Shown here in pieces: positions 2,389 to 57,166 of a stretch of 64,000 nucleotides of DNA (positions are counted from its first letter, which is position 1; every line of letters starts with the position of its first letter). The DNA is taken from the NCBI GenBank assembly GCA_049609145.1, contig JBMYYF010000002.1:372839-436838 (forward strand), in the 5' to 3' direction. The stretch comes from Alphaproteobacteria bacterium (GTDB lineage Bacteria; Pseudomonadota; Alphaproteobacteria; SPJN01). Below the pieces are notes generated by a model. The model was not told where the DNA came from. It was given only the letters and a program-made list of their open reading frames with translations, and made no database searches. Position numbers and translations under genes: made by a program.

Positions 2389-3272
2389 ACGGCATCAATT
2401 GTTGCGAAGATGTGGTCCAGCTCTCGTTCAAGATCTGTCGCCAATATGTTTAGGTCGGACACGTTTCCCTGGGCAATGGTGTCACTAAACGGGGTGTGTT
2501 CTGATTGCAGTGCAAGGAACAGGCTGTCTTCGTCAAAGACAACATGAAGCGTCTTGGGGCGTAGCAATTTGTCGAGGCGTGTAAACTCATTCATGACGTT
2601 GGGGGTCATAAGCTTGCGTCCTGCGACTTGGTCAGTGCCATAGAAGTCGTATTTTTTTTCGAACTCAGGGCTCTCTAGGTGAATGCGTGGCCAAGCGGCC
2701 CCTGCAAGGCTTTTCGGATGGAGACCAAAAGTGCCGGATACTGGAGATACGTTATCAATCCGGGCGACTACACCTTTGAAGCTGCGCTGACGATTGTCCT
2801 TGTTTCTGCTGTGTATCACGCTGATTGAATAGGCCTTGCCATCATGTGTGCCTGTTATCGCAACATGTTCCTGTGTGGATGTATAATCAGGTAAAAGCCC
2901 TTTCACCAAAATGGTGGGGTAAAGTGGGGAGAGAGCTTCGTGAAGCGTAAAGTTATCCCGTCGAGCCAGGAGCGGTGGGAGCAGGATTTGCAAGGCTTGG
3001 CTTTTGGGTGCGTGTAGCACCAATGCAGTAATCAGAATAATACCTAGCAGAAGCACGGAAAATAGTACCGCGAAAAATTCGAGCGGGTAATCCCATTTCA
3101 TTACAAGAATAAGAACTATATTGCTTATAACCAGCGCCCCTCCGCCGAAAGTTACAGTATATAGAGTGACCCGTGTCACGCGGGCCCACCAGCGCATCCG
3201 GTTTAGCTGGCCTGTATAAGGTGTGTAATGTTTGTTAACGAACGCATCGCGGTCGGGTTGATCACGGAACAT
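2331..3272 (-). CDS. DUF3137-like membrane protein (two N-terminal TM helices), paralog 2
   Basis: Two hydrophobic helices at the N-terminus, then a soluble domain. Clearly homologous to the adjacent gene (shared motifs GT.HG...S....., FDF.G.DQ..GR...TP). The family assignment comes from resemblance to proteins usually encoded next to lemA. Confidence 0.55.
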   Translation of the reverse strand: MFRDQPDRDAFVNKHYTPYTGQLNRMRWWARVTRVTLYTVTFGGGALVISNIVLILVMKWDYPLEFFAVLFSVLLLGIILITALVLHAPKSQALQILLPPLLARRDNFTLHEALSPLYPTILVKGLLPDYTSTQEHVAITGTHDGKAYSISVIHSRNKDNRQRSFKGVVARIDNVSPVSGTFGLHPKSLAGAAWPRIHLESPEFEKKYDFYGTDQVAGRKLMTPNVMNEFTRLDKLLRPKTLHVVFDEDSLFLALQSEHTPFSDTIAQGNVSDLNILATDLERELDHIFATIDAVCQRRARPIEAAHNAGSVL

Positions 3273-4282
3273 CAGAATGGTCCTGGCTGTTCATTTTGAT
3301 CATGTATCAAAATGTCGACGGCACGAAGTGCTGTATGTATATCACGAGCGACTTGCGCTACCTGTTGGCGTAGTTCGTCGGCAGGCTGTGATAAGATGCC
3401 GCCGTCGATCCAATTTTGCGGCATCTTGTAGGCGATGAAAATGGTGCCATTCTTGAAAATGGCGCTCAAACTATTTGAGGCAAATGCTTGCGAGAATTGA
3501 TACCACTTTTCCATGCGGGCGGGTGTGAAAATTGTTCGGCCCTCCATTTGGTCCGATCCGAGGAAATCGAAGTGATCTTCGAAGTCAGAACTTTCCAGCT
3601 TTATGGTTTCCCATGCTGTGAGGTTTCTAAAGTATCCTTGGTAGCGTCCTGAGGTGCCGCTATTGGGATACAGTGCGTAAGAGCCGGTAAAGGGATATTG
3701 ACTCGGCGTCTTGATAACCAGACCAGAGAATACGGTTTTGGATCTATCCCGACTTTTTTGCGTTAATGTTGTATCCAGCATGGACACGGGGTGCCCATGA
3801 TAAGTGCCACATATAAAGTCTTCGATACGTAGCCCGTTAAAAGACGGCAGTAGCTCTGGGGTTGTCATCTCTTTGAAGACGCTGCGGGGGGGCTTAGGCG
3901 TATACGAAAAATCGCCATAATGGGCGAGAATGCTGGGCACCACCTTCTCTTTCAGCCGCACTAGATATTGTCCATGAATGACTTTGCGATTTCCGAAAGC
4001 GGCCCCGAAAAGGAGAAATGAAAGGCCGAAGCCAATCGTGACATGCTCGCTACCTGACATCATCAATCCGATATTGGCCGCAATAGTGATGGCCGCCACG
4101 AGCATTATGGCAATTTGTGCTATGCGGGCGCGCAGCTCGAGCTTATGTCGTTCGCGAATAAGGGCGGCGCTGATCGGCGTGATTTCCGCATCAAACAAGA
4201 TGGAGAATGCCGGAGAGGCGGTGAAGGAGGTTTCTTCGCCACCAACTGGCGTTCGTTTTAGGCGGGCAGTCGCATCATCCAT
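3272..4282 (-). CDS. DUF3137-like membrane protein (two N-terminal TM helices), paralog 1
   Basis: Same architecture as the downstream paralog. Its stop overlaps the paralog start by 1 nt and it sits 8 nt after the lemA stop. Confidence 0.55.
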   Translation of the reverse strand: MDDATARLKRTPVGGEETSFTASPAFSILFDAEITPISAALIRERHKLELRARIAQIAIMLVAAITIAANIGLMMSGSEHVTIGFGLSFLLFGAAFGNRKVIHGQYLVRLKEKVVPSILAHYGDFSYTPKPPRSVFKEMTTPELLPSFNGLRIEDFICGTYHGHPVSMLDTTLTQKSRDRSKTVFSGLVIKTPSQYPFTGSYALYPNSGTSGRYQGYFRNLTAWETIKLESSDFEDHFDFLGSDQMEGRTIFTPARMEKWYQFSQAFASNSLSAIFKNGTIFIAYKMPQNWIDGGILSQPADELRQQVAQVARDIHTALRAVDILIHDQNEQPGPF

Positions 4283-4290
4283 ATTTTAGT

Positions 4291-4863
4291 TTATCCGCCT
4301 AGATGATCAGCGGCTGGTATGGCGCCTTTGGGGGTTGCATCATCGATTTCGTAGAAGGGCATTTCGCCGATCTTGATCATGCTTGCCACCAAAGAGCTGG
4401 GGAATATCTGGGTCGCATTGTTCAAATCGGTTACAGCTGAGTTGTAGAACCGACGCGCAGCGGCAATATTTGCTTCAACGTCCTGATATGTTTTTTGCGC
4501 TTTTTGCATCACCGTGTCTGACTTTAGATCAGGATAGTTTTCTGCGATAGCTATCAGACGCCCTAACGTGGACTGCACGCCCTCAGCAGCCTTTAGATGA
4601 TCTTGAACGTCAGCGGCACTGCCTGCGTCGTATGATTTTTCAAACGCGGTACGTGCGGCGGTAAGATCTTCCAGCAATGCCCGTTCATGTTCCATAAATT
4701 TTTTGGCAATTGCTAACACGTTGGGGATTAGGTTTGCCCTCTTTTTGATTTGTACATCTATACCGCTTAGTGCCTCTAGGGCGCGGTTGCGACGTTTGAT
4801 AAGCCTCGAATAAAGCACGTATAAAAGGATACCGATTATGGCGATGACATAGATAGCTTCCAT
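4291..4863 (-). CDS. lemA: LemA family protein
   Basis: N-terminal TM helix followed by the characteristic LemA segment ALSGIDVQIKKRANLIPNVLAIAKKFMEHERALLEDL. Length is 190 aa. Confidence 0.85.
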   Translation of the reverse strand: MEAIYVIAIIGILLYVLYSRLIKRRNRALEALSGIDVQIKKRANLIPNVLAIAKKFMEHERALLEDLTAARTAFEKSYDAGSAADVQDHLKAAEGVQSTLGRLIAIAENYPDLKSDTVMQKAQKTYQDVEANIAAARRFYNSAVTDLNNATQIFPSSLVASMIKIGEMPFYEIDDATPKGAIPAADHLGG

Positions 4864-4864
4864 T

Positions 4865-6643
4865 TTATTGTCCTCTCGTCGCGATAGTGGTTTGTGCGAC
4901 TGTTGCTTTTTGGTTCAGCGCAGCGTTTTCGAAGTTTATGAATTCAGGCAGTAGATTGGTCGTGTGCTGCACTCCCGATAACTGCCCCATGTTTGGTATG
5001 ATTTGCAGCTTCGCATTGGGTAGGCTATTTGTTATGGCTTGGGCATTCTCTAAGGTGTTGATGCCATTGCGATCGCCATGACAAACCAAAATTGGCGTAG
5101 TTATTCGCCGCCACTCAAGGCTGGCCTCATGGATTGCCATTGACAATGCTTGGGCGCTGCCGAGGTGATATTCTGAAACGGTGATTTTGGTGCCGAGGAT
5201 TAAGGCTTTTTTCAAGTCTGGCTCCCGTTCGAACAGCGCTTGATCTGCCGGTGAATCCATCAACCAGCGATCAACAAACTTTGTGATGAATGTGTCAGTG
5301 GCGCGCGTGGATAGGACTTTTGCAACAAAGGATAGTGCCCAATCTGATTTAGAAAATTGCCTAAAGAGCCTTGCGCCGATACTATCGCGTTCTTCTTCAG
5401 GCGGAGATACGCGCGGTGAAATGAGGCAAAGCGCAGATAGTGTTGAGGGGCAGGCTATCGCTGCCTCTAGCGCGAAACGGGCACCCACGGCCATCCCAAT
5501 GGCGGGAAATTTTTGGGTGTTAAACCGCCTTTCGAGTACTGTTAGCAGCTCTGCAATGTCTGCCCGGTATTTGCTCCACGAATAATCTGGTTGAAAACTT
5601 GCTTGCCCTCTGCCGGAAAGTTGGGGGCAGATAAAACAAATGTTCATCTCATACAACAATGCGTTCATGCCAGCTGACGCAACATATTCATTCAGGGGGC
5701 TGTTGAAAATAAGAATGGGCTTGCCGATAGCCGGGCCATAAACATGGTAGGCGATCTTGTTGCCATCTTTCAGTTCAACCAAGCTGGGGTTGCGATAAAT
5801 AGCAAGCCCATCAAACGAGGAGGAAGATTGGAGGGTTTTGTCTCTGGTTTCTCGTCCCGGTATTGCAATGCTTAGCATCGTTAAAAGTCGGATGAGATCA
5901 GATTGGCGGTTCACACCAACCTTCGCGAAAACGGATTTAAGGTGATTGCGCGCAGTGTTGTGAGCGATGTTGAGTTGGTCTGCCGCTTCCTTTAGCGCCA
6001 TTCCCTGTTGCAGGTAACGCACTAGTTCGGTTTCAGCATGGGTGAGGCCAAGGCCGATTGTGGTTGAGGGGGTGCCCTTCTGCTCAGCGGTGAGTGGAAG
6101 AAGGAAAATGGATATTTGGTTCTTTTCACCGATCCGGTTGATGACCGCGATTAGGGGTGATGCGTCTTCCGCTGCTGGTAAGCGCACTAGTCGCGGCCCA
6201 CCTCCATCGTCTCTTGCCATCACCAAGGCCGTCATGAATGGGTCACGCAACTCTGTTTCGTGCAGGTCAAAACGTTGCCCTAGGCCCAGCCCCTTACAAT
6301 AGGGGTTGATGAGCGAAAGTGCCTCGCTGCCTGCTGCCATAACTTTTAGATCCATGGATAATAGTAGACGGCAGCGGTCCAAGGGGTGCACTTCGTCCGT
6401 TCGGTCGAGCTGATGGCTAACGCGTTCGGCAATTTTGAGCGCGCGGTCTAGATGGGATTGCAACTCACCATATGTCTCAAGTTCTTCGAGGTTTAGCTCA
6501 AGGCGCTCAAGCTCGGAAAGCATGTCCAATGCCGCGTCGGCGGTATCGGCTTCGCTTGCGTATCGGTAGATAAAGTCCATTAGTGTCATATAGATATCAA
6601 GTGATGCATCTGCTTTTGGTGCTATATCGGACTTCGTCGCCAT
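4865..6643 (-). CDS. LuxR-family HTH transcriptional regulator fused to a C-terminal alpha/beta-hydrolase-fold domain (probably non-catalytic)
   Basis: LuxR-type HTH is readable mid-protein (LTHAETELVRYLQQGMALKEAADQLNIAHNTARNHLKSVFAKVGV). The C-terminal roughly 300 aa has alpha/beta-hydrolase topology, but the nucleophile elbow reads GMAVG (Ala in place of Ser) and the HG position reads NS. A 1-nt gap separates it from lemA. Confidence 0.7.
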   Translation of the reverse strand: MATKSDIAPKADASLDIYMTLMDFIYRYASEADTADAALDMLSELERLELNLEELETYGELQSHLDRALKIAERVSHQLDRTDEVHPLDRCRLLLSMDLKVMAAGSEALSLINPYCKGLGLGQRFDLHETELRDPFMTALVMARDDGGGPRLVRLPAAEDASPLIAVINRIGEKNQISIFLLPLTAEQKGTPSTTIGLGLTHAETELVRYLQQGMALKEAADQLNIAHNTARNHLKSVFAKVGVNRQSDLIRLLTMLSIAIPGRETRDKTLQSSSSFDGLAIYRNPSLVELKDGNKIAYHVYGPAIGKPILIFNSPLNEYVASAGMNALLYEMNICFICPQLSGRGQASFQPDYSWSKYRADIAELLTVLERRFNTQKFPAIGMAVGARFALEAAIACPSTLSALCLISPRVSPPEEERDSIGARLFRQFSKSDWALSFVAKVLSTRATDTFITKFVDRWLMDSPADQALFEREPDLKKALILGTKITVSEYHLGSAQALSMAIHEASLEWRRITTPILVCHGDRNGINTLENAQAITNSLPNAKLQIIPNMGQLSGVQHTTNLLPEFINFENAALNQKATVAQTTIATRGQ

Positions 6644-6791
6644 ACCGCCCTAATCCCCCTTAGTTTTCTTGGAGCACTTAGCAAAATAGATATATATCGG
6701 GAACTTATTCAGATATAGTCCATTTGAGCTATGTTGACTGATTGGCTCCCTCATTAGGCTGTGGATGATCCATTGCCGAAGGAGGCTCCTG

Positions 6792-7874
6792 ATGCGTCTG
6801 CACTTAAAACTACCGCTTGTTTTTGCTGTGTTTTTGGGGCTTTTTTCCCCCGCATTTGCTGCCAATGATCAAGCGCGCGAAGCTTATTACGAAGGCATCA
6901 AAGCGCGTGATGCTAACGACTATCAGCGCTCACATAGCCTGTTATGCGTGGCCGCCAAGGCCGAATACCCAGATGCTGTAATGGAGTGCGGCATGACCTA
7001 TTTGTTAGGTGCGGGTGTCGCCAGAAATGTACAAAATGGTATTTTGCTATTAGCTCGAGCAGCTGAGCTGAAGGTGGGGGCTGCCGCATTTAGACTTTCG
7101 TTGCTTTATTTGAAGGGCGAAGTAGTGCAACGCGATCTTGCTAAGGCGAAGACCTATTTGCTGCAAGGGGCGAATTTAGGTAGCGGTGAAGCGGAATATG
7201 CATTGGCGAATGCTTATATGCGGGGCATGACAGTAGATGGGGTTGTTGTATTTGCAAAGGATGTAGTGCAGGCAGCCATATGGATGGAGAAAGCAGCGAG
7301 CTACTCAATGCAGTCCTCATTCGATTATGGCATTGTCCTTTATCAAGGCATTGGACGCCCATCTGACAAAATGGAGGGGTTGAAATGGATTGAGATGTCT
7401 ATCGGTATGGGCGGCATGAAAGCGGCTGATGTGCTGACCAAAATCTATCGGACCGATGCAGAGGTAAAGGCGCTATATGATGAACAAGGCCTGCAAATGG
7501 TTCAACAACATGAGGCCGGCGAGGGGGGACGTATCTATGATGTCGTGGGCCCGGGGTTCGGTCGTGCGCCGCCTGCGGGAATGGTTATGGTTGACCCTAC
7601 CTTCTATTTCCGACTTGGCTTGCGGGCCGCCTACGGGTTAGGGGTCTCAGGTGGACCAGTTGCTGCCGTTAAATATTGGCAACATGACATCGACTCCAAT
7701 GTTGGCTTCTCGGGGTCAATGTTTTTGCTTGGCATGGCCTATTATACTGGAACGGGTGTTGTTGAGGACAAAGTTAAAGGTATTGCCCTGCTGCAACGCC
7801 TAAATATGGGCTCACATGAAGGGGCAGCTGCTTTCTTGCGGTCCATTAAGGCGCCCCTTAAGCCTCCCAAGTGA
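6792..7874 (+). CDS. secreted Sel1-like repeat protein
   Basis: Signal peptide MRLHLKLPLVFAVFLGLFSPAFA. Repeated Sel1-like motifs (..A..Y..GIGV..D...A..W..KAA..G...A). RBS AAGGAGG lies 7 nt upstream of the ATG at 6792. Confidence 0.75.
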   Translation: MRLHLKLPLVFAVFLGLFSPAFAANDQAREAYYEGIKARDANDYQRSHSLLCVAAKAEYPDAVMECGMTYLLGAGVARNVQNGILLLARAAELKVGAAAFRLSLLYLKGEVVQRDLAKAKTYLLQGANLGSGEAEYALANAYMRGMTVDGVVVFAKDVVQAAIWMEKAASYSMQSSFDYGIVLYQGIGRPSDKMEGLKWIEMSIGMGGMKAADVLTKIYRTDAEVKALYDEQGLQMVQQHEAGEGGRIYDVVGPGFGRAPPAGMVMVDPTFYFRLGLRAAYGLGVSGGPVAAVKYWQHDIDSNVGFSGSMFLLGMAYYTGTGVVEDKVKGIALLQRLNMGSHEGAAAFLRSIKAPLKPPK

Positions 7875-9538: not shown

Positions 9539-11071
9539 ATGACAGACGCGCAGAAAAACTTGGATGACAAGACACCCATTTTGGTGGGGGCCGGGCAATA
9601 TGTAGAGCGTCAGGCAACGCCGCATGGGCCAATGTATTTGGCCTCACAAGCGGCGGCGGGAGCGGTTGCCGATTGTGGCGCACCAAATATCGCCGCTCAT
9701 ATCGATACGATCGGTGTGATTCGCCTGTTCTCCGATTCATTGGGACCGTGGACCGGCAAACATGGGCGCAGCAACAATCCACCGCAATCAATTGCCAAGG
9801 CAATCGGGGCGTCCCCGAAAACACGCATCTACAGCCCCGTAGGCGGCAATGAACCACTATCTTTGCTGATCGAATGTGCCAAGGATATTGCTGAAGGCAA
9901 AAAAGAGATGGCACTGATCGCCGGATCGGAGGCTATAAAAAACCAGCGTCAGGCCGATCGTGATGATCAGACATTGTCATGGGATGAAGTATTTGATGAG
10001 CCGTTTGATGATCGGTTGGCCCCGCCTTCTTTGTTGACGGTGCAGGAACGCTATTCCGGTCTGGCAACACCCATTCGCACCTACAGCCTGTTTGATCAGG
10101 CCCGGCGCCATGCGCAGCGGGCAGACCTTGCCTCCTACAGTAATGCCATGGCGGCGTTGATGGCACCTTTGAGTGAAGTTGCCGCCCAAAACCCCTATGC
10201 CCAGTTTCCTGAAAGCTACAGCGCCGATGACATTGCCAAGTCACGGCAGCTCACACACATGTATACCGGGCGTATGGTGGCGCGTGATGCGGTCAATTTG
10301 GGTGCCGCTGTCCTCGTGTGCAGTGTTGGGAAGGCCAAGCAGCTTGCCATCCCTCAAGATCGCTGGGTGTTTTTGCATGGATTGGCCGAAGGCAAGGAAC
10401 TGCGCCCAAGTGAACGGCCAAATCTTGCCACCTCACCCATGGCGGGCAAGGTTGTGGATCGGGCACTCGATCTGGCGGAAAAAGACATCGCAGGCATTGA
10501 TGGGCTTGATATTTATAGCTGTTTTCCCTGTGCGGTAAGTATGTTGACGGATCATCTGGGTATTCCAACCGATGGCAGCCGCGCGCTGACACTGACCGGC
10601 GGGCTGCCTTATCTTGGAGGCCCCGGCAATAATTACAGTATGCACGCTTTGGCAGAGGCTCTTTGGCGCTGCCGCCAGCGACCGGATGATTTTACGCTGG
10701 TCACGTGCAATGGAGGCTTTTTGTCCAAACATGCCACCGGCGTTTTCTCTGCGGTGCCCAGTTTGAGAGACTGGAGCCGCGTTGAGACACGGATTTCGCA
10801 ATCCGGGCTGGATAAAAAGCCGTTGGCGACGCACCCGACCGGTGGGCGCATCATCTCATACGCCGTGGATTACTGGGGCAGCGACACCCCCACAGGCGCG
10901 TGTGTTCTGGCTGAAACTGATACGGGTGAGCGGTTTATCTGCACAACAGCAGAAGGTGACAACGCCACCGCCGCAAGTTTTGCCGATGCCGATGACCTGA
11001 CAGGCAGGCTGATCCTTACGCGCCCGGCCAATGTGGAACAAGAGACGTTCCATTTCGCGTTGTCGCTATAA
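9539..11071 (+). CDS. thiolase-like (SCP-x/thiolase superfamily) protein
   Basis: Thiolase-fold signatures are present (GGLPYLGGPGNNYSMHALAE, CNGGFLSKHATG). RBS GAGGGGG precedes the ATG at 9539. The upstream in-frame extension is rejected. Confidence 0.65.
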   Translation: MTDAQKNLDDKTPILVGAGQYVERQATPHGPMYLASQAAAGAVADCGAPNIAAHIDTIGVIRLFSDSLGPWTGKHGRSNNPPQSIAKAIGASPKTRIYSPVGGNEPLSLLIECAKDIAEGKKEMALIAGSEAIKNQRQADRDDQTLSWDEVFDEPFDDRLAPPSLLTVQERYSGLATPIRTYSLFDQARRHAQRADLASYSNAMAALMAPLSEVAAQNPYAQFPESYSADDIAKSRQLTHMYTGRMVARDAVNLGAAVLVCSVGKAKQLAIPQDRWVFLHGLAEGKELRPSERPNLATSPMAGKVVDRALDLAEKDIAGIDGLDIYSCFPCAVSMLTDHLGIPTDGSRALTLTGGLPYLGGPGNNYSMHALAEALWRCRQRPDDFTLVTCNGGFLSKHATGVFSAVPSLRDWSRVETRISQSGLDKKPLATHPTGGRIISYAVDYWGSDTPTGACVLAETDTGERFICTTAEGDNATAASFADADDLTGRLILTRPANVEQETFHFALSL

Positions 11072-41422: not shown

Positions 41423-42580
41423 ATGCAAGATACCCCCGTCACCCAGCCGGCCTGGATGGATGAAGAACTTGAAATCTTTAAGGACGCCGCAGGCAAATTT
41501 TTTGATGCCGAATGCGCCCCCAATGCAGAGCGTTGGGAAGAACAGGGCTTTGTCGATCGCGACATCTGGAACAAAATGGGCGAAATGGGCTTCTTGAACG
41601 CCTCTATCTCGGCTGATTATGGCGGCGCAGGCGGCGACTTTCGGCACGAGGCGGTGCTCTACGAACAGCAAGTAAAAAAGAATGCAGGCGGCATTGGTGT
41701 GTCCGTACATTCCGGCATTTGCGCCCATTACATTCAATCTTACGGCACCGAAGAACAAAAGCAGCGCTGGCTGCCGGATATGGCAACAGGCAAAAAAGTC
41801 TGCGCCATCGCCATGACGGAACCTGGCACCGGGTCTGATCTTCAAAACGTGAAGACCACTGCCGTGATGGACGGGAACGAGCTTGTGGTGAACGGTCAAA
41901 AAACCTTCATCACCAATGGGCAGCAGGCCGACTTGATTATTGTGGTCGCCAAAACCGATCCCACCCAAGGCTCCAAAGGTATTTCTCTGGTCATGGTGGA
42001 CGCGACGGAATGCGAAGGCTTCAAGCGTGGCCGCAATCTCAAAAAAGTGGGGATGAAATCTCAGGACACGTCAGAGCTTTTCTTTGATAATGTGCGCGTA
42101 CCCACCTCTAACCTTATTGGGGAACAAGCGGGCCAAGGTTTCATTCAATTGATGCAACAATTGCCGCAAGAACGCTTGATTATTGGCGTAAACTGCGTGG
42201 CGATTGCAGAACAAGCTTTGGACGAAACCATTCAATATACGCGTGAGCGCAAGGCGTTTGGTCAAAGCGTGATTGATTTCCAAAACACGCGCTTCAAATT
42301 GGCGGAAATGAAAACCCAAATCACCATTGGGAAAACCTTCGTCAACAAATGCGTTGAAGCGTTGATGAAGGGCGAGCTTGATCCCGCCACCGCCTCTATG
42401 GCGAAATATTGGACATCGCAAATGGTGAACGATGTGGTGGATGAATGCGTTCAGCTTCACGGCGGTTATGGCTATATGTGGGAATATCCCATTGGCCGCA
42501 TGTATGCCGATGTGCGTATCCAAAAAATCTTCGGTGGCACAAACGAGATTATGAAAGAACTGATCGGCCGGACTTTGTAA
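41423..42580 (+). CDS. acyl-CoA dehydrogenase
   Basis: Classic roughly 385-aa ACAD (TEPGTGSDLQNVKTTA...). RBS AGGAG precedes the ATG at 41423. Confidence 0.85.
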   Translation: MQDTPVTQPAWMDEELEIFKDAAGKFFDAECAPNAERWEEQGFVDRDIWNKMGEMGFLNASISADYGGAGGDFRHEAVLYEQQVKKNAGGIGVSVHSGICAHYIQSYGTEEQKQRWLPDMATGKKVCAIAMTEPGTGSDLQNVKTTAVMDGNELVVNGQKTFITNGQQADLIIVVAKTDPTQGSKGISLVMVDATECEGFKRGRNLKKVGMKSQDTSELFFDNVRVPTSNLIGEQAGQGFIQLMQQLPQERLIIGVNCVAIAEQALDETIQYTRERKAFGQSVIDFQNTRFKLAEMKTQITIGKTFVNKCVEALMKGELDPATASMAKYWTSQMVNDVVDECVQLHGGYGYMWEYPIGRMYADVRIQKIFGGTNEIMKELIGRTL

Positions 42581-42682
42581 TCTCTCACGGCAGCAGGCTT
42601 GCGCCCGCGCCTACGAGGTGCAGCGCGTGGTCCGGCAACGAAGTTGCACCACAGGAAACCGCGCTGGACTTGAAATTCAGAA

Positions 42683-42726
42683 GGGCAGTCCCAGCATTAT
42701 TTTGCGGGCTGCCCTTTGTTGTTTTG
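42683..42726 (+). terminator. Rho-independent terminator after the ACAD gene
   Basis: GGGCAG-N-CTGCCC stem followed by tttgttgtttt. Confidence 0.55.
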
Positions 42727-42772
42727 CGCATTAAGATTGATACGTTTAAGTGCCGATTCGGTGGAGGATTGC

Positions 42773-43228
42773 ATGCAAATCAAAAGTCCTAATAAGGAAT
42801 GGGTTGCCCAAGAACTGGATAAGCTGTTCCACGAGTGGCTCGAATGGAAGGATGAAGTCGGGCAAATCGTGGACCATCCGTATGATGCCCATCGCGAATC
42901 GCAAGTTTTTGCCGATGGTAGAGAGAACATGCAAAAACACCGGGTGCTGCAGGCTAAAACGATTGAATTCCTTAATCAAAACATCAAGAGACACGGCTTT
43001 ATCTATCGTGATGGGCGCGGCGCTGATCGCACAGACCTTCGGCTGAATATCCGTGTTCAGCACCGAATTGATGATCTCGACGAGATCAAAGCGCGGTTGG
43101 AATATGCGAGTGTAACTGACGGGTTTTGGCGTGAACAAGGAAAGAAGCTGATTGGGAAAATCGTGGCTAATCCTTTCAAAGCCGTTGAAACTGCGGCTAC
43201 AGCACTTAAGAATTCTCGGGTGTTGTAG
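42773..43228 (+). CDS. hypothetical protein (151 aa), lower-GC orphan
   Basis: Clean ORF, by eye about 48% GC against a backbone near 58%. No recognisable motif. Followed by a hairpin cluster. Confidence 0.4.
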   Translation: MQIKSPNKEWVAQELDKLFHEWLEWKDEVGQIVDHPYDAHRESQVFADGRENMQKHRVLQAKTIEFLNQNIKRHGFIYRDGRGADRTDLRLNIRVQHRIDDLDEIKARLEYASVTDGFWREQGKKLIGKIVANPFKAVETAATALKNSRVL

Positions 43229-43388
43229 AGAGTTGGAAAACTGTTTCCATCGCGTAGCGATGGATCGCGCCCGACCCGCCCCACAGGGCGGGTGCGAAAA
43301 CGCACCCACCCTCGGGCCGGACACGATTGTTTTTGGGGTTCTAATTCCTCGAGCCCATGCTAGCCTTTTCTCAAACAAGGAGGGTCCC

Positions 43389-43799
43389 ATGAATAAGCCA
43401 CTTATGCGTTTAGGCTTTGTGCTGTTGTTGTTAAGCCTGCTGGCGGCACTTGTTGCGCCACAGGCGCAAATACCGCGCTTGGCGGTTAGTGCGCACTCCA
43501 TCGGCTTTATGGGCGGCATCATGTTGTTTGCCATTGGCGCTGGCTGGTCGGCCTTCAGCCTTTCAGACCGCCAAAAGAACCTGCTTAAATGGAGCTGGAT
43601 TTGGGCCAATTTTGGTAATTGGGCTGGCGTGTCCATCGCGTCTCAAACGGGCGCGACGGATCTATTACAGATCAATGGCGGTGCGCCCGATGCGCCCATT
43701 TGGGCAACCATCATCGTCTATTTCTTCATGATTACCATCATGGTTGCCGCGCTTACCGGCAGTGTGTTGGGTGTGATGGGGCTGAAAAAAGAAGATTAA
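43389..43799 (+). CDS. small integral membrane protein (136 aa, about 4 TM)
   Basis: Strong RBS AAGGAGGG precedes the ATG. The translation is almost entirely hydrophobic helices. Confidence 0.55.
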   Translation: MNKPLMRLGFVLLLLSLLAALVAPQAQIPRLAVSAHSIGFMGGIMLFAIGAGWSAFSLSDRQKNLLKWSWIWANFGNWAGVSIASQTGATDLLQINGGAPDAPIWATIIVYFFMITIMVAALTGSVLGVMGLKKED

Positions 43800-50039: not shown

Positions 50040-52181
50040 ATGAAGATTGTGAAATGGCTTGGCGGCACGGTTCTGGCGTTGCTGGTGCTTATCGTGGGCG
50101 TCGGTGCCTATCGCAGCCTCACCGCGCTGCCGTCGCCCCCGCTGATGATCGAGGGCGGCACACTCACCTTCGCCGAAGGGGTGGAAGGCACCTATGAAGC
50201 AGGCGACATCAAGGTCGTGCTGGGCGGAGCGCATGGCATTGAGGTGTTCAACAAGGGCGAAGAGGTCCTCAAAGGCCCGAAAGACGCGCCGTTCATTTGG
50301 GCTGCCAATGGTTCGATTGAGTATGTGGGGGCGGGTGATACTTTCTTGCCTGCCTTCAGCGATTTTCAGCCATGCCAGGCTTTAGAAGTGACAGGGGCAG
50401 AGGCCCGCAAAACGGTCACTTTGGATTTTGTAGTCTCGTGTTCGGAGGAAACAGAAGGCGGGCGCTTGAACATTGTTACGGATAATGCCGGAACACATCT
50501 CTCTCTTGGGTCTAATATACCTATAGGTATGGCTTTTGCGCGTGAGAATAGCGCGCCGATTTTTGGGGGCGGGGAACAATTCTCCGCAGCCAATCTGGAT
50601 GGTCTTTATGTGCCGCTCATCACGGCAGAACAAGGCATTGGGCGCGGCGACCAACCTTTTTCGGCTTTGGTGAACGCGCTGCTGCCGGGCGTCACGGGTG
50701 ATTGGTATTCAAGCTATGCGCCATCAGGTGTTTTCGTAACCGCGCATGACAAAACAGTGGTCGCGCGCGCGGCGGGCTTTGGGGCAATTGATTTGCGTCA
50801 GGGCGATCGTGTGGGTTTTTGGAGTGACGATGTCTTGGCCGTAACAGTCGAGGCGGCCCCGCAGGCCATGCGCCCGCTGCCCGATTGGATCGGGGAAGGG
50901 GCCGTGCTCGGCATTCAGGGCGGCAGTGATGTTGTGCGAGCGAAGGTGAAAGCCGCTCAAGAAGCGGGTGTGCCACTAGCTGGCGTTTGGTTGCAGGATT
51001 GGCAAGGCCAGCGCCGCATCGATAATTCAGAGCGCCTGTGGTGGAACTGGGTGCTGGACCGCGACCGCTATCCCGGCTGGGAGGAACTGGTAGCCGATCT
51101 CAAAGCAGATGGCATTCGCGTCATGACTTATATCAATCCCTATCTGGTCGATGTGGGAAATGAGTTGCCGGGCCGCCGCAATCTCTACCAAGAAGCGAAA
51201 GCTAAAGGCTATCTGGTCACGACAGACGAGGGGGCGGTGCGCTACATTCATTCCGGCACCATCAAGGCCGGGGTAATTGATCTGTTCAATCATAAGGCGG
51301 CGGATTGGTATGCGGGCATCATTAGCGAAAATCTCATCGGCACCGGGGCGTCTGGCTTTATGGCCGACTTTGGAGAGAGCTTCCCGATGGAATGGGGTGT
51401 AAGATTGCACAACCAATACCCCGTCCTGTGGGCGAAGACCGTCCGCAAAGCGATTGATGCGGCCCCAAATGGCGATCAAATCGTTGCCTTCCATCGCTCC
51501 GGTTTCACCGATAGCCCGCGCCACGCCACCGCCTTTTGGGCAGGCGATCAGTTGGTGACATGGGGCAAGCATGATGGCTTCAAATCCGCCATCACCGCCA
51601 TGATGACGGGCAGTATTTCCGGCATGGCCTATAATCACTCGGATATTGGCGGTTACACCACGGTGGTGACGCCCTTTACCGATATTCGCCGAGATAAGGA
51701 GCTGTTCCAACGCTGGACAGAATTTGCGGCCTTTACCCCCATTTTCCGCACCCATGAAGGCAATCAGCCGCGGGAGAACCACCAGTTTGATACAGATGCG
51801 GAAACACTCACCCATTTCGCCAAAATGACCCGGCTGTTTCGCTGCCTGCACCCTTATCGCAAGCGCTTGATGGCAGAACACAGCCAAACCGGCGCGCCGC
51901 TCATGCGTCATCCATGGCTGCATTACCCGGATGACAAGCGTTTCCACCCCATGACCTATCAGCAAATGATGCTGGGGGCGGATATGATGGTCGTGCCCGT
52001 ATCCGATCCGGGCCTCTCAACTGTCAGCGCCTATTTGCCCGATGATGGGTGGGAGCTGTTCTGGTCCGGCAAGGTGTATCAGGCAGGCGATCACCAAGTC
52101 GCCGCGCCCATTGGTCAACCCGCTTTCTTTGTGCGCGCGGGCAGTGCGGTAAAACGCGAACTTGAAGCCTGCCGTCTTTAA
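50040..52181 (+). CDS. glycoside hydrolase family 31, N-terminally membrane-anchored
   Basis: GH31 catalytic-region motifs (GFMADFGE, WAGDQ). N-terminal TM/signal. Length 713 aa. Confidence 0.75.
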   Translation: MKIVKWLGGTVLALLVLIVGVGAYRSLTALPSPPLMIEGGTLTFAEGVEGTYEAGDIKVVLGGAHGIEVFNKGEEVLKGPKDAPFIWAANGSIEYVGAGDTFLPAFSDFQPCQALEVTGAEARKTVTLDFVVSCSEETEGGRLNIVTDNAGTHLSLGSNIPIGMAFARENSAPIFGGGEQFSAANLDGLYVPLITAEQGIGRGDQPFSALVNALLPGVTGDWYSSYAPSGVFVTAHDKTVVARAAGFGAIDLRQGDRVGFWSDDVLAVTVEAAPQAMRPLPDWIGEGAVLGIQGGSDVVRAKVKAAQEAGVPLAGVWLQDWQGQRRIDNSERLWWNWVLDRDRYPGWEELVADLKADGIRVMTYINPYLVDVGNELPGRRNLYQEAKAKGYLVTTDEGAVRYIHSGTIKAGVIDLFNHKAADWYAGIISENLIGTGASGFMADFGESFPMEWGVRLHNQYPVLWAKTVRKAIDAAPNGDQIVAFHRSGFTDSPRHATAFWAGDQLVTWGKHDGFKSAITAMMTGSISGMAYNHSDIGGYTTVVTPFTDIRRDKELFQRWTEFAAFTPIFRTHEGNQPRENHQFDTDAETLTHFAKMTRLFRCLHPYRKRLMAEHSQTGAPLMRHPWLHYPDDKRFHPMTYQQMMLGADMMVVPVSDPGLSTVSAYLPDDGWELFWSGKVYQAGDHQVAAPIGQPAFFVRAGSAVKRELEACRL

Positions 52182-52217: not shown

Positions 52218-53528
52218 ATGAATTTGAAGCACAATCCGTATTACCGTTCGTGGCGCATGATCGGCGGCATGATCCCCATTATGGTGGCCTTCAAAATGGC
52301 AAGCTGGATGGAACGCTTTCGCGACCGGGAAGCTCATTTAGCGGCGGTGGACGCGGTGCATCTCAAAACCGCGCGTACCTTGCGCCGGTTGGCGGAAGAT
52401 CTGGAAGGCATCACCATCAAGTCGGCGCAGGTTGTTGGCGCGCGCGGCGATTTGGTGCCGCAAGCCTATGCAGATGAACTGGGCAAGTTTCACGACGCGG
52501 TAGACCCCCACCCGTTCGAGGTGGTGCGTGTGCAGGTTGAACGCGCCATTGGCGGGCCGGTTGAAACAGCCTTTGCAGAATTCGATCAACAGGCGATTGC
52601 TGCGGCATCGTTGGCGCAGGTCCATCGCGCCACCTTGAAAGATGGCCGCGTTGTCGCTGTCAAAATTCAATATCCAGAGGCCGAGCGCCTGATCAAAACC
52701 GACACCGCAACCATGCGGTTTTTAACGCGCGTCGCGTCCAAGCTTGTGGGCTTTGATGCCACCCCGTTCGCGAAGGATTTTTCGGAGCAACTCCAATTCG
52801 AGCTGGAGTTTGATCGCGAGGCCAAGGCCATGAAGCGCGTGCGGGAGATGTTCGCCGATACCGATCATATCGCCGTGCCCATCGAGGTGCCGGAACTATC
52901 CAACGAACGTGTGCTCACCATGACATGGCTGGAAGGCACGCCGCTTTCCAACCCCGCGCAATTGAAAGCTGAAGGCCATGATCTGCAATTGGCGGCAGAT
53001 CGCATTGGGCAAGCCTATGTGCGCATGATCTTCAAGGAAGAGTTTTTTCACGGAGATCCGCATCCCGGCAATTTGCGTATCACGCCCGATGGCAAATTGG
53101 GCCTGCTTGATTTTGGCCTGTCGCGGGATTTGCCGCCGGGCTTCGGTAAGGCGATGGCGCAATTCATTGCCGCGGCGCTGATGAAGGATTTGGAAACAGG
53201 GCGCGAGGCCGCCAAGCGCGCGGGCATTTTGGGTGATGATGAAGACATCAAAACCGTGATGAAGCTGTTTGCCGAATTTGTCTCCGGCAATGCTGCCGCG
53301 CGCGAAGCCGCCGCCATTCGCGAAGGCAAGGAACCCGATCAGCCGCCCATCATGCCAAACCTTAAAGTGCCGCCGCACATCACTTTGGTGCTGCGTGCCA
53401 TGAGCCTGCTGGACGGTCTCTCAGCTCGCCTTACACCCGGTGAACAACGGGTGCAGGCGGCCTTGATGACAGCGCTGATGCAAGCAGTTCAAGAAGACAA
53501 TCAGGACAAAGCTGCCGTGGGCGTCTAG
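52218..53528 (+). CDS. ABC1/UbiB-family atypical protein kinase
   Basis: ADCK/UbiB signatures (AAASLAQVHRA, VAVKIQYP, HGDPHPGN). Confidence 0.8.
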   Translation: MNLKHNPYYRSWRMIGGMIPIMVAFKMASWMERFRDREAHLAAVDAVHLKTARTLRRLAEDLEGITIKSAQVVGARGDLVPQAYADELGKFHDAVDPHPFEVVRVQVERAIGGPVETAFAEFDQQAIAAASLAQVHRATLKDGRVVAVKIQYPEAERLIKTDTATMRFLTRVASKLVGFDATPFAKDFSEQLQFELEFDREAKAMKRVREMFADTDHIAVPIEVPELSNERVLTMTWLEGTPLSNPAQLKAEGHDLQLAADRIGQAYVRMIFKEEFFHGDPHPGNLRITPDGKLGLLDFGLSRDLPPGFGKAMAQFIAAALMKDLETGREAAKRAGILGDDEDIKTVMKLFAEFVSGNAAAREAAAIREGKEPDQPPIMPNLKVPPHITLVLRAMSLLDGLSARLTPGEQRVQAALMTALMQAVQEDNQDKAAVGV

Positions 53529-54769
53529 CGCGCGGTGGGCATCTTTAACTTTTTGCACTTGTAGGATTCATGCTCACCGCGTGTGGTCACAGGCATGTAG
53601 CCGCTCCGACATTTGAACTTGGGCGAAACACAGCCCCAGCCCTTGAAGCGCGCATTGGCAACCTGCCCGCGTGAGGCTTCAAACTCCGCCCCATTGCCGC
53701 AAGTTGGCCTCATGTTGCGGAGTTCAAGCTTATCGGCATTGCTCGCATCTGCCGGCAGCGTCTTGTGGCAATCAAAAATCACGTGATCATTTTTGATATT
53801 CCGGGTGCGCATGAAACGTTTCATGCCCGGATCGAAATCCGGGTTCGTCTCGGCGGATGTGCTGGTATAGGGTTTCACGTCCCTGTCGCTCGTGCCGCAA
53901 TTCATGGTTTTAACACGACAAGTGTAGGGGGAGCTCTCCCAATTGGCGCGCCGATAGATGAAGCCTGCAACGCAGCTATCGGCATTGGGGTCACTCGCCC
54001 TATTGTCATCATTGGCGCTGCTGCCGAACAAACCGGGCGGCGGTCCGTTTTTCGGGGGCCGTTTGCCGTCTCTGGTGCACAGGCAACGGTCTTTTGCATA
54101 GCAATAAATGCCTTCACCGCTTTTCCGGCACTGCATCGTTGAAGGGCCATTAGCGTCTCTCGGTATATCGCTGTTCGCCTTGGGGTCTTGCTGTGGCTTG
54201 GGGTCATTCTGTGGGTTAGGGTCGCTTTGCGGCTTGGGCTTTTCCGTGCAGGTGTATTCGCTTGGACGGTTCTTGTCGTAGGAAAGATCATACCCTTGAG
54301 AGCATGATTGGCTGCCGCGCACACAGGTAAACGCCAATGCGTTGTCTGATTTGTGTTGCTTGCGGGTTGGATGCAGCTCTGACCCCGGCGCGCAACTTGC
54401 TTTCAAATTGGCCAGCTTTTCTGCCTTGTTGGCATCATTTTCGCCATAAACCTTAAAGCAATCAAAGGCATATTGTTTTTTCGAATTGATCCGCGGCGCT
54501 TTCAGAAACTTCTTTGTTTCCGGCTTCATGCTGGATGTGTTGGATTGGCTGCCGCGATAGGCATCGAACGGGCGAACGCATTGCGAGCCTGTCATGCACT
54601 TGTAGGACTTGCCGTCGCTGCCATCTCTGGGGCTAAACCCACGCGCGCAATCTTGGCGATAGTTCACACGGGCCTCAGCTTCGGTAGACAAGGTGGGAAC
54701 AAATGAAGCCGTAGCCGCGGCCACCACTGCCGCACCTATCAGAAGTGATTTAGCGGATCTAAAAAGCAT
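53525..54769 (-). CDS. secreted cysteine-rich protein of unknown function (414 aa)
   Basis: Signal peptide. About 30 Cys in recurring Y-[KT]-C ... G-S-Q-(S)-C modules. A central Pro/Gln/Asp low-complexity linker. Confidence 0.5.
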   Translation of the reverse strand: MLFRSAKSLLIGAAVVAAATASFVPTLSTEAEARVNYRQDCARGFSPRDGSDGKSYKCMTGSQCVRPFDAYRGSQSNTSSMKPETKKFLKAPRINSKKQYAFDCFKVYGENDANKAEKLANLKASCAPGSELHPTRKQHKSDNALAFTCVRGSQSCSQGYDLSYDKNRPSEYTCTEKPKPQSDPNPQNDPKPQQDPKANSDIPRDANGPSTMQCRKSGEGIYCYAKDRCLCTRDGKRPPKNGPPPGLFGSSANDDNRASDPNADSCVAGFIYRRANWESSPYTCRVKTMNCGTSDRDVKPYTSTSAETNPDFDPGMKRFMRTRNIKNDHVIFDCHKTLPADASNADKLELRNMRPTCGNGAEFEASRGQVANARFKGWGCVSPKFKCRSGYMPVTTRGEHESYKCKKLKMPTAR

Positions 54770-54783
54770 AGTGTTCTCTCCCC

Positions 54784-55158
54784 TTATTCGCAGCCCGAAG
54801 CTGCTTTGGCAGGTGCAGGCTCGGCGCTTGCGCCATCGTCTTGAGCATTCACTTTGGAAACGTGACTGATCATGCGGGTGTCACTGCCCGGCACTGTGTC
54901 GCCTGCTGCACCATCGTCTTGCGCGTTCACTTTGGAAACGTGACTGATCATGCGCGTGTCACTGCCGGGCACTGTGTCGCCCGCGGCGTCATCATCTTGC
55001 GCATTTTTCTTGGATACATGGCTGATCATGCGCTGCGTGTCATCGCAATCCGGGCGGGCGCTCTCATCTGCCATTGCGGCAGTGGCTAGGCAAAGTCCCA
55101 TTGCAGTCACCGTCGCGATTACAACATTCGACGTCTTTTTCATCATCACATCTTTCAT
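54784..55158 (-). CDS. secreted protein built from three tandem 26-aa repeats
   Basis: Signal peptide, then 3 copies of RMISHVSK(K/V)NAQDD(D/G)AAGDTVPGSDT, then a short Ala/Pro tail ending in GCE. Confidence 0.5.
   Translation of the reverse strand: MKDVMMKKTSNVVIATVTAMGLCLATAAMADESARPDCDDTQRMISHVSKKNAQDDDAAGDTVPGSDTRMISHVSKVNAQDDGAAGDTVPGSDTRMISHVSKVNAQDDGASAEPAPAKAASGCE
54844..55040. repeat. three tandem ~78-bp direct repeats (copies 2 and 3 near-identical), in-frame coding
   Basis: Unit: cactttggaaacgtgactgatcatgcg.gtgtcactgcc.ggcactgtgtcgcc.gc.gc..catc.tcttgcgc.tt. Confidence 0.7.
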
Positions 55159-55267
55159 TCAACAGGCCACCCAGCCAGTCATATGACGAAAGCATGGGCC
55201 GAAACGGAGTGTTTGCGCAAGGGTAGGTGCTGCGTGATGTAACGGTGGTCACACTTTTCAGGTGCAA

Positions 55268-55287
55268 AGTGTGATGGCTGTCACACT
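55268..55287. promoter_or_regulatory. CRP/FNR-family type box TGTGA-N6-TCACA, overlapping a longer inverted repeat
   Basis: aagTGTGAtggctgTCACAct lies about 110 bp upstream of the repeat-protein gene start. An adjacent inverted repeat TCACACTTT-N8-AAAGTGTGA shares its right arm. Confidence 0.4.
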
Positions 55288-55385
55288 CTACAATCGCAGA
55301 AAATTGCCATTTTTGGGAAGGTGCCGTGAGGGGCAAGAGGGGGAAATGCCCCTCACGGCTGGGGTGTCGCGTCATGCCTGGGGGA

Positions 55386-55583
55386 TTAGGCAGTCGCGAC
55401 TTCGTTGATGGTCGTTTCGCTCGCGGCGATCACTTGCGGTGCATCCATCGTGGTGCACGTGGTTTCAACGCATTGGGCCACCATCGGGTTGCCGGAGTCT
55501 GCGTAAAACATCTCGCTTGGCGCGCAGATCATGAGGGCAAGGGTTACACTCATGGCCATAAAGGACTTACGATACATTTCCAT
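55386..55583 (-). CDS. small secreted peptide (66 aa) of unknown function
   Basis: RBS GGAGAGAG, signal peptide MEMYRKSFMAMSVTLALMICAPS, and a roughly 40-aa mature part with 3 Cys. Confidence 0.4.
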   Translation of the reverse strand: MEMYRKSFMAMSVTLALMICAPSEMFYADSGNPMVAQCVETTCTTMDAPQVIAASETTINEVATA

Positions 55584-55864
55584 CTTCTCTCTCCACTTAG
55601 CTGGGCAACAGCGCCCTGCCATGAAACAGATATGGGGTGGTATCGGTGACCCTTCAAATACAACCATGTGGGTTTGTGCGCGCTGTCACATTTTCGCCTC
55701 AAGTAAGGCGCTTGTAATAAAAATATAATAAAAACATATGGTTATAGTGTTTTTGTTGTCACAATCTGCCCGTATAGATTGTTACTCCGTCACACTTTGG
55801 TCTTGCGCCTTTAGCGTCTATTGCCATCAAGGCCTAACACCTATTGCCCGGCCACTATTCGCCC

Positions 55865-57166
55865 TTACGCAGGCTGCTTTTCCCGGTCCTTTTTTAGGAC
55901 TTCAACGGGGGTAAAGGTGGCTTCGTGTTTGCCAACCGCATAACCGCCTTCTTGAATTTGCCGGCCCAGCCGCTCCGCCAATCTTGTGCCGCCCGGCGTT
56001 ATTCTGCGCGCCGTTTCTGTGCCCAGCACCGCGCCGCGTAACGCCAGTGGAAACCACCGCCATGACTTTCCCTGTGGCAGACCGAGATCATTATAGAGTT
56101 GGTTGCCCAGCATGTGTGTAATGCCAAGCCGCGCACCGGACAAACCGTTGTCGATCAAGTCGCCGATGGGGCCATCGGGTGCCAGCGGGAAACGCATGTC
56201 GGCCAAGCCTTTGGCCAGTGCCACGGCATCTTCATCCGGCGGGGGCTGGGTGGTGGCAGATAGCCAAATGGCGCGTAAGCCCTCTACCTCACTTTCTGAG
56301 ATGTAACGCGGGTCAACGCCCATCAAGATGCCCGCATAGCGCCATAGATGCATAATGGCCTTGCGTTCTTGTTTGGAAAAGCGCACGCCCAGCAATCCAC
56401 AAGCGTTCAGGAACAAAACAGAAAACGCATTATTGGTGGCCAGCATATGGGCTTGGCTGATCGGCATGCCCAATTCTTCAAAGTCCCATTCGGGATGTAC
56501 CTTCAGGCGCGCGCGCACCATGGCGTGCATCACGCGCACCATCACCGTTGTTTTGGTGCCCGCACCAAAGCGGGTTAACCCATCGGTCGCGGTCGCGTCC
56601 AGCCACCAGCTTGCCGTTTCTGCCAGCCGTTTTTCTGCGCCCGTTTCCAGTGCGCCCGTAAACACCAGTGATTTGTTCATGACGGAGCTGATGGCATAGC
56701 CGCCCATCAAGGCCACATCGCCCAGCACAATCAGGCCAAGCGGTCCGGTGCGATGAATGGCGCGCGTTGCGATTTCCAGCAGGTCGCGGTCCAGCCAGAA
56801 GGGTTCTGTGTCGATCTCTTTGAACAGATTGATCAAGGCGGGGTGAGGGTCATCAATCGCGTCGATCCCTTCATCCAGTGCCTTTTGCAAAATTGCCCGG
56901 CCCTTGGGGAACGACACGTCGCGGAACCATTCCACCACGGCATCGGCTGTGGGGTCTCCCTCTAGTGTCATGCGCGCGAACTCATCATACTGCGCATCTG
57001 TTGGGCTGACTTGGCGGCCGGTCATAAACTGTCCCAGCATGTCGGCGATTTTGGTTGTCGTTGGATTGAACATGCCGTAATCGCGCTTGGCGAAGTGACC
57101 CGGCTTTTTCAGGTCGGCATTTTGAGCGGTCGGATTTTTGAAATTCGGATTGGGGGCGTTCATCAT
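55865..57166 (-). CDS. DUF2236 domain protein (MpaB/latex-clearing-protein-like oxygenase family)
   Basis: An R..H..VR-like helical motif (VMVRVMHAMVRARL) and a length of about 430 aa fit DUF2236. Inferred without a search. Confidence 0.5.
   Translation of the reverse strand: MMNAPNPNFKNPTAQNADLKKPGHFAKRDYGMFNPTTTKIADMLGQFMTGRQVSPTDAQYDEFARMTLEGDPTADAVVEWFRDVSFPKGRAILQKALDEGIDAIDDPHPALINLFKEIDTEPFWLDRDLLEIATRAIHRTGPLGLIVLGDVALMGGYAISSVMNKSLVFTGALETGAEKRLAETASWWLDATATDGLTRFGAGTKTTVMVRVMHAMVRARLKVHPEWDFEELGMPISQAHMLATNNAFSVLFLNACGLLGVRFSKQERKAIMHLWRYAGILMGVDPRYISESEVEGLRAIWLSATTQPPPDEDAVALAKGLADMRFPLAPDGPIGDLIDNGLSGARLGITHMLGNQLYNDLGLPQGKSWRWFPLALRGAVLGTETARRITPGGTRLAERLGRQIQEGGYAVGKHEATFTPVEVLKKDREKQPA

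Follow-up and report, generated by a model that had tools for sequence, protein, structure and literature searches.

An islet of three orphan genes for putatively exported proteins, preceded by CRP-type boxes, in an uncultured alphaproteobacterium

We analyzed a stretch of 64,000 nucleotides (nt) from the marine-type genome of an Alphaproteobacteria bacterium (GTDB class Alphaproteobacteria, SPJN01; assembly GCA_049609145.1, contig JBMYYF010000002.1, positions 372,839 to 436,838 of the forward strand). This whole stretch is referred to below as the window, and positions are counted from its first letter. It contains an islet of about 2.4 kb (53506-55901) with three minus-strand open reading frames (ORFs) in a row, which we call A, B and C. 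A first-pass annotation, made from the letters alone, had described three consecutive minus-strand genes here, each encoding a secreted protein of a kind it did not recognize; the ORF list and the sequence confirm the three consecutive genes. The interval that it flagged coincides almost exactly with a strain-specific replacement islet. The coordinates of all features are collected in Table 1.

The borders of the islet are sharp. In a blastn comparison of the window with contigs of three sister genomes (L011, L012 and L013), the flanks showed 79-81% nucleotide identity up to position 55902 and again from position 53505, and the interval between them gave no match. Similarity to the relatives stops at the 3' end of mpaB, the gene for an MpaB-family oxygenase (55902), and resumes at the 3' end of a convergent gene for an ABC1/UbiB-like kinase (53505). 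Given that the flanks are about 80% identical and that no similarity exists between them, the interval 53506-55901 is a replacement islet in a hypervariable slot. In other words, the islet is strain- or species-specific accessory DNA that occupies a slot between conserved genes for an MpaB-family oxygenase and an ABC1/UbiB-like kinase. The stop codon of gene A (53525-53527) overlaps that of the kinase gene (53526-53528), and the C-terminus of the kinase departs from those of its relatives exactly where the islet starts, so that the insertion rewrote the final few kinase codons. The MpaB-family gene beside C is part of the conserved backbone and occurs also in genomes that lack B. We found no tRNA gene, no flanking direct repeats and no integrase gene nearby that would point to a mobile element.

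Table 1. Positions of the islet, its genes and sequence elements, and of the corresponding slot in sister genomes (bp, base pairs; aa, amino acids; Cys, cysteine)
Feature	Position	Strand	Remarks
Strain-specific islet	53506..55901		only part of the mpaB/ABC1-kinase interval that lacks similarity to sister genomes
Gene A	53525..54769	minus	414 aa; exported, cationic, Cys-rich
Signal peptide of A	54671..54769	minus	residues 1-33, ends at AEA-R; by inspection
Domain D1 of A	54242..54658	minus	residues 38-176; 8 Cys, spacing 17, 6, 40, 22, 23, 7, 18
Pro/Gln/Asp-rich linker of A	54131..54241	minus	tandem 18-bp (6-aa) repeats PQSDPN/PQNDPK/PQQDPK
4-Cys mini-module of A (CRKSGEGIYCYAKDRCLC)	54077..54130	minus	from the translation
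Second, Gly/Pro-rich linker of A	53984-54076	minus	follows the 4-Cys mini-module
Domain D2 of A	53549..53983	minus	residues 263-407; 8 Cys, spacing 18, 7, 43, 23, 23, 7, 18
Gene B	54784..55158	minus	124 aa (120 aa from the MMKK start used by NCBI); exported, acidic
Tandem 78-bp repeat in B	54829..55033	minus	2.6 copies by Tandem Repeats Finder (TRF); TRMISHVSK(V/K)NAQDD(G/D)AAGDTVPGSD
CRP-type box, 1 mismatch (TGTAACGGTGGTCACA)	55238..55253		centre 87 bp upstream of B start codon
CRP-type palindrome, perfect (TGTGATGGCTGTCACA)	55270..55285		centre 119 bp upstream of B start; 32 bp from neighbouring box
13-bp hairpin, perfect	55323..55359	minus	27 nt after C stop; terminator-like, no U-tract
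Gene C	55386..55583	minus	65 aa; exported acidic peptide
CRP-type box, 1 mismatch (TGTGCGCGCTGTCACA)	55675..55690		centre about 100 bp upstream of C start codon
Degenerate CRP-type box, 2 mismatches (TGTTTTTGTTGTCACA)	55748..55763		adjoins AT-rich tract; 77% similar to perfect box plus flanks
Isolated TGTGAC half-site (AAAGTGTGAC)	55789..55794	minus	31 bp upstream of next TGTGAC site
Sister-genome slot content	L011:11440-14666; L014:9755-12088; L012:11300-11529; L013:11300-11489		

Gene A encodes the largest of the three proteins. After removal of the signal peptide it would have 381 amino acids, an isoelectric point (pI) of 9.3 and a net charge of +24, and it would contain 20 Cys in an 8+4+8 arrangement, not the approximately 30 originally reported. 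The eight-Cys groups fall in two domains of about 140 amino acids, D1 and D2, which align with each other at 26% identity (BLASTP E=9e-10), with 8/8 Cys conserved and nearly identical Cys spacing. By this alignment, D1 and D2 are diverged duplicates, and A is an old, internally duplicated protein. A unit of the form C-x2-G-[FYSA]-x(n)-[YFW]-x-C is found in six copies across the two domains. It is this unit that recurs; of the 'Y-x-C ... GSQ-C' modules described previously, the GSQ element is confined to the N-terminal D1. The Pro/Gln/Asp-rich linker reported between the Cys modules was recovered in the translation, and its tandem repeats were detected by TRF (54179-54223, period 18, 2.5 copies). 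A ribosome-binding site (GGGGAGAG) is located 8 nt before the ATG of A, inside the 14-bp spacer that separates it from B.

Gene B precedes A by only 14 bp, so that B and A form an operon. The mature protein would have 94 amino acids, a pI of 4.5, a net charge of -9 and a single Cys near each end. It had been described as three 26-aa repeats; the 26-aa unit is correct, but the count is two full copies and a 17-aa partial third. Each repeat holds the sequence M-I-S-H and an acidic DDGAAGD loop, and there are three M-x-x-H motifs in the protein. When repeat 1 and repeat 2 were compared codon by codon, 12 of the 26 codons differed (14 identical, nine synonymous and three non-synonymous). This excess of synonymous over non-synonymous differences (9 vs 3) is a mark of selection on the reading frame, and B is accordingly under purifying selection. 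Gene C encodes a small peptide, 65 aa long and not 66 as first given. It has three Cys, one of them within the signal peptide; the mature form of 37-42 aa would be acidic (pI 4.05, charge -5) and would contain a CVETTC (C-x4-C) loop. A GGAG sequence lies 7 nt before its ATG.

The signal peptides were judged by eye from the sequence and its hydropathy, and by this inspection the earlier assignment of one to each protein was upheld: all three begin with a basic n-region, then have 15-20 hydrophobic residues, and end the signal at an A-x-A-like cleavage site (marked below by a hyphen), which is less canonical in C. The n-region of A carries R4 and K7, and that of B carries KK; their hydrophobic stretches are LLIGAAVVAAATASFVPTL and VVIATVTAMGLCLATA, and their cleavage sites AEA-R and AMA-D, respectively. 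The signal-like N-terminus of C has RK, the stretch SFMAMSVTLALMICA and a possible cleavage at FYA-D or APS-E. No lipobox was found in A, B or C, and a lipoprotein reading of B and C was rejected, since both are devoid of a lipobox that has a small residue at position -1.

To judge coding potential, we used a codon log-likelihood score trained on 40 long genes of the window and compared it with the scores of 221 spurious ORFs. For A, B and C alike, the score was highest in the annotated frame. The values of B (0.30) and C (0.34) exceeded those of all 221 spurious ORFs (maximum 0.25) and are close to the mean of the host genes (0.33), and that of A (0.08) is at the low edge, around the 5th percentile of real-gene windows. 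The old duplication with its retained Cys framework rules out that A is a chance ORF or a recent de novo gene. All three were also called as genes independently by NCBI and by Logan. We conclude that A, B and C are real genes, and that the case is weakest for C.

None of the three belongs to any described protein family, in agreement with the first-pass annotation, whose author could recognize nothing in them. A word-index search of 5.8 billion protein clusters with A, B and C returned only 100%-identical copies from the same organism, which stem from 'MAG: Alphaproteobacteria bacterium' assemblies or from Logan runs of the same population. When A was compared exhaustively by HMMER with 1.84 billion representatives, only A itself came back, and searches of genome, metagenome and viral contigs with A returned nothing. 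Pfam, NCBIfam, PHROGs and PADLOC, and also PDB, which was searched by sequence and by profile, gave nothing significant for the islet proteins; the best matches had E ≥ 0.007, far below the curated cut-offs, and covered only signal peptides or low-complexity regions. The three exported proteins of the islet have no relative among approximately 15 billion public proteins. With the neighbouring genes as queries, a metagenome scan with the ABC1 kinase found nothing beyond the same organism, and a GTDB scan with MpaB found only relatives of ≤39% identity.

The regulatory sequences of the islet are concentrated in two long gaps. Gaps of 227 and 281 bp had been reported between the three genes; the sizes are right, but the 227-bp gap lies between C and B and the 281-bp gap between mpaB and C. 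They are the two largest among the 19 intergenic distances in a 20-kb neighbourhood. The palindrome TGTGA-N6-TCACA with at most one mismatch occurs three times in the window, and all three sites fall in these two gaps (508 bp in total), where 0.012 sites would be expected by chance (P ~3e-7). The hexamer TGTGAC is not enriched overall (18 in the window vs 20 expected); five of the 18 are found in the two gaps, all in one orientation and with spacings of 31, 73 and 32 bp (P ~8e-7). The CRP-type box and the multiple GTCACA half-sites that had been noticed here are therefore real and strongly non-random, and the case for the box is better than it had been put at first. A CRP-type regulator is probably shared by the three genes, as had been suggested from these sites. 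The additional idea of a low-oxygen regulator found no support, as there is no FNR-type box (TTGAT-N4-ATCAA) with at most one mismatch in the locus, the best candidate (55817-55830) having two.

These boxes can be compared with known promoters. A perfect CAP motif has been reported in the promoter of an operon that includes cgrA, encoding the CRP-type regulator CgrA of Rhodospirillum centenum, an alphaproteobacterium (PMC10187061). The islet likewise has 16-bp TGTGA-N6-TCACA palindromes of the kind bound by Escherichia coli CAP, one of them perfect (consensus from PMC10187061), and its paired boxes 32 bp apart would be separated by about three helical turns. It differs from the CAP/CRP promoters in that no gene for such a regulator lies in the window. 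The sites of the islet all keep a C at position 6 (TGTGAC), a position that matters for Clr of Sinorhizobium meliloti; however, the Clr consensus is not matched, and no Clr-type site (HGTYHC-N4-GRWACA) was found in the locus.

A consensus promoter scan detected one weak site only, and the promoter regions downstream of the CRP-type boxes lack a good -35 element. Ahead of C, a very AT-rich tract (55712-55757, aacaaaaacactataaccatatgtttttattatatttttattacaag) with an 11-bp tandem repeat at 55715-55738 is flanked by two TGTGAC sites; it could serve as an UP element or bending site, or could itself be the promoter. The 91-nt stretch with the hairpin that follows C folds at -31.2 kcal/mol (z = -3.97). 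The hairpin was also considered as a repetitive extragenic palindromic element and rejected as such, since it occurs only once in the window. An Rfam search of the two long gaps gave no known RNA. Taken together, the islet holds two transcription units: a monocistronic one with the TGTGAC sites and a CRP-type box, then C and the 13-bp hairpin, and a bicistronic one with the two CRP-type boxes 32 bp apart, then B and A. The hairpin marks the division between them.

What fills the same slot in sister genomes was examined in four contigs (L011-L014), which were reached through variants from other assemblies that cluster at 90% identity with the adjoining MpaB-family protein and which are syntenic with the window at about 80% nucleotide identity. 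There, three genes share an N-terminal module of about 66 aa (89% identity) and have unrelated C-termini. Behind each of them come genes for small proteins that carry a signal peptide or a transmembrane segment, including paralogous pairs of 149/145 aa and 171/119 aa, and the slot also contains direct repeats of 186-213 nt and a terminal 3' stub. A promoter-like sequence (TTGCTTGACTTTT...TTAGAACAA) after mpaB is conserved in 3/3 relatives and absent from the window. The sister-slot proteins had no match in Pfam, NCBIfam, PHROGs, PADLOC or PDB. In their layout, the sister arrays look like polymorphic toxin/immunity arrays. The proteins of the sister islands gave no tblastn match in the window, and no module is common to these arrays and A, B or C.

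We hold with high confidence that the locus is an islet of two units whose Sec-type products have no relatives, with an old duplicated A and with B under purifying selection. What the products do is a separate matter. The first-pass annotation had offered three readings, namely an extracellular signalling or adhesion system, a toxin or bacteriocin-like cassette, and a precursor with repeated core units. Because the sister genomes hold toxin/immunity-like arrays in the same slot, we lean towards the second of these, a toxin- or bacteriocin-like or interaction cassette, and give the third very little credence. In the account that we tentatively prefer, although we would put it at somewhat less than an even chance as a whole, competition function included, the islet is a cyclic-nucleotide-induced module for extracytoplasmic interaction or competition. 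A CRP-family regulator loaded with cyclic nucleotide would bind the boxes and turn on both units together. A, B and C would then be exported by Sec and oxidized in the periplasm, where A would acquire about 10 disulfides, B one that links its two ends, and C its C-x4-C loop. Outside the cytoplasm, the strongly cationic A may bind some anionic component in the envelope or matrix of other cells and act as a toxin-like or competition effector. The acidic and co-translated B, and perhaps also C, could serve as its neutralizing or immunity-like partner. The module would functionally replace the toxin/immunity-like array that fills the slot in the sister genomes. We favour such a competition or interaction role because of the charge complementarity, the tight coupling of B and A, the lineage restriction and the toxin-like slot content in relatives.

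Several observations weigh against this account. We found no known toxin, adhesin or binding domain in A, B or C. No outer-membrane export system was found in the window, and neither was a gene for a CRP-family regulator (tblastn with E. coli CRP and a Pfam survey). B, a repeat protein of low complexity, has its gene upstream of A; this is atypical for immunity proteins, which tend to be globular, with genes on the downstream side. As for the sister arrays, it is solely their architecture that suggests toxins. The four public assemblies that contain the islet are identical across it and thus offer no variation for estimating the ratio of non-synonymous to synonymous substitution rates. Finally, AlphaFold2 predictions of full-length A and of D1 with D2 as alignment had predicted local distance difference test scores of 38 and 40, respectively, and were unusable. 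A Foldseek search of the D1 model gave nothing below E=1, and given these models we treat that result as noise and infer no fold.

As in polymorphic toxin arrays and hypervariable competition islets, the slot has conserved flanks and a content that is fully exchanged between close relatives, and in the window it holds a tightly coupled, oppositely charged exported pair (A and B). However, A uses a Sec signal peptide and not a trafficking domain, neither A, B and C nor the sister arrays have a known toxin or immunity domain, and the putative partner B is repetitive and lies upstream. Classification of A-B-C as a polymorphic toxin system was therefore rejected, given also that it shares no module with the sister arrays, which do have the architecture of such systems. 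A second comparison is with cationic disulfide-rich effectors and antimicrobials, such as defensin-like proteins with anionic pro-pieces and the Cys-rich effectors of eukaryotic pathogens. Like these, A is Cys-rich, with a conserved Cys framework and fast divergence otherwise; it is strongly positive with an acidic partner, and it is lineage-restricted. Unlike these, A is bacterial, far larger and two-domain, and it has no match in sequence or fold; the likeness would be one of physical chemistry only. A bolder version of the account would make A the founder of a new bacterial family of extracellular disulfide-rich domains (~140 aa, 8 Cys, C-x2-G-[FY]...Y-x-C hairpins) and, with B and perhaps C, a novel type of Sec-dependent, cyclic-nucleotide-switched effector/neutralizer pair that displaced a polymorphic-toxin array from a hot spot of competition. 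We consider this unlikely.

The alternative that survives best, though we think it doubtful, is a non-toxic adhesion or matrix module in which A anchors cells to an anionic polymer or surface. A would then consist of two disulfide-stabilized binding domains on Pro-rich spacers, B would be an acidic partner in the matrix or at the surface, built of repeats, and the module would be induced by CRP with cyclic AMP (cAMP) under starvation or surface conditions. The duplicated domains of A and its Pro/Gln/Asp-rich and Gly/Pro-rich linkers fit this. Such a layout resembles the spacers in many extracellular binding proteins. The strongly cationic character of A and the genuine CRP-type boxes are also in line with it, as is the presence of sugar catabolism genes (GH31, ThuA, GFO/IDH/MocA and MFS) among the backbone neighbours. 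However, the sister genomes keep these sugar genes and yet have no islet, no known family of adhesins, lectins or carbohydrate-binding proteins was matched, and the slot is otherwise filled by toxin-like arrays.

We also considered the possibility that the islet buffers metals or other cations in the periplasm, with the M-x-x-H motifs and Asp-rich loops of B binding soft metals such as Cu(I) and Ag(I), or else Ca2+, and with A and C as thiol/disulfide partners. Both elements are present in each repeat of B, which is moreover exported and acidic. SilE and PcoE are disordered periplasmic proteins, and B would loosely resemble them in this respect. However, B has only three Met/His pairs, and neither in Pfam nor in NCBIfam does it match SilE/PcoE or a metal-binding family of any kind; the neighbourhood contains no pump for metal resistance, no oxidase and no sensor of metals, and the regulation looks to be of the CRP type and not of the MerR/CueR or CusRS type. 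A SilE/PcoE-like identity of B was therefore rejected, and we regard metal buffering as improbable.

Still less probable is a multi-core precursor, in which B would be cut after Sec export into two or three copies of a signal or modified natural product of about 26 aa by maturation enzymes encoded elsewhere. B does have a signal peptide, and its repeats are near-identical as protein while their DNA differs mostly at synonymous positions, so that it is the repeated peptide itself on which selection acts. Multi-core precursors of ribosomally synthesized and post-translationally modified peptides (RiPPs), and Sec-signal RiPP precursors such as the bufferins, are comparable in that B has a signal peptide ahead of repeated near-identical units and C is a small exported peptide with Cys. 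However, the third copy in B is truncated, the repeats have no Cys and no recognizable flanking cleavage sites, and to our knowledge they do not look like any core pattern that can be modified. The window has no MNIO/DUF692, radical-SAM, YcaO or lanthipeptide enzyme. No modifying enzyme, protease or dedicated exporter was found in the islet or in the window, so the earlier view that this is not a classical RiPP cluster is supported. The adjoining MpaB-family oxygenase is conserved in genomes without B and, as part of the backbone, does not qualify as a tailoring enzyme of the islet. It is equally improbable that some or all of the ORFs are non-functional, as chance ORFs or decaying remnants of an old insertion with C as the most vulnerable: homologues are found nowhere, A has a low codon score for this genome, and C is supported by its codon score, ribosome-binding site and signal-like N-terminus only, but the repeats of B diverge with a synonymous bias, A retains all eight Cys of an ancient duplication over 414 codons, and C outscores the 221 spurious ORFs and has its GGAG, its own CRP-type box and a downstream hairpin.

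Some observations elsewhere in the window were made in passing. Of the 25 differences between the window and a contig (L001) of a metagenome-assembled genome from the same population (99.25% identity), 24 cluster in about 550 bp (51291-51842) inside the GH31 alpha-glucosidase gene, a pattern suggestive of local recombination or of an artefact from mixed strains. The remaining difference falls within the ABC1 kinase gene, and elsewhere the 3.3 kb show none. On the minus strand at 391-6643 there is a block of genes for a Ser/Thr protein kinase with TPR repeats, for two paralogous DUF3137 proteins, for a member of the LemA family and for a fusion of a LuxR-type helix-turn-helix domain with an alpha/beta-hydrolase; it adjoins a gene for a Sel1-repeat protein on the plus strand (6765-7874). 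The guanine-plus-cytosine content dips at 42000-43700 (0.49 vs ~0.55 elsewhere), where no convincing gene was identified; a 296-aa ORF within the dip (42746-43636, minus strand) has an odd composition and no Pfam match. A 510-aa ORF (9539-11071) directly upstream of a TonB-dependent receptor gene had no Pfam match at E ≤ 1e-5.

Orphan secreted proteins in accessory islets are common. The present slot is a clean case of content that is wholly exchanged between close relatives, and the old duplication with an 8-Cys framework in the orphan protein A points to an unsampled reservoir of fast-evolving extracellular proteins. In addition, the CAP-type boxes provide a direct experimental handle, through induction by cAMP or cyclic GMP, on orphan genes of an uncultured alphaproteobacterium. 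If the effector/neutralizer reading is wrong, the islet would be a well-delimited but ordinary example of orphan accessory genes; if it is true, it would represent a new Sec-dependent competition module. In either case, the islet is strain-specific accessory DNA in a hypervariable slot that is probably related to competition, and it encodes protein families previously unseen.

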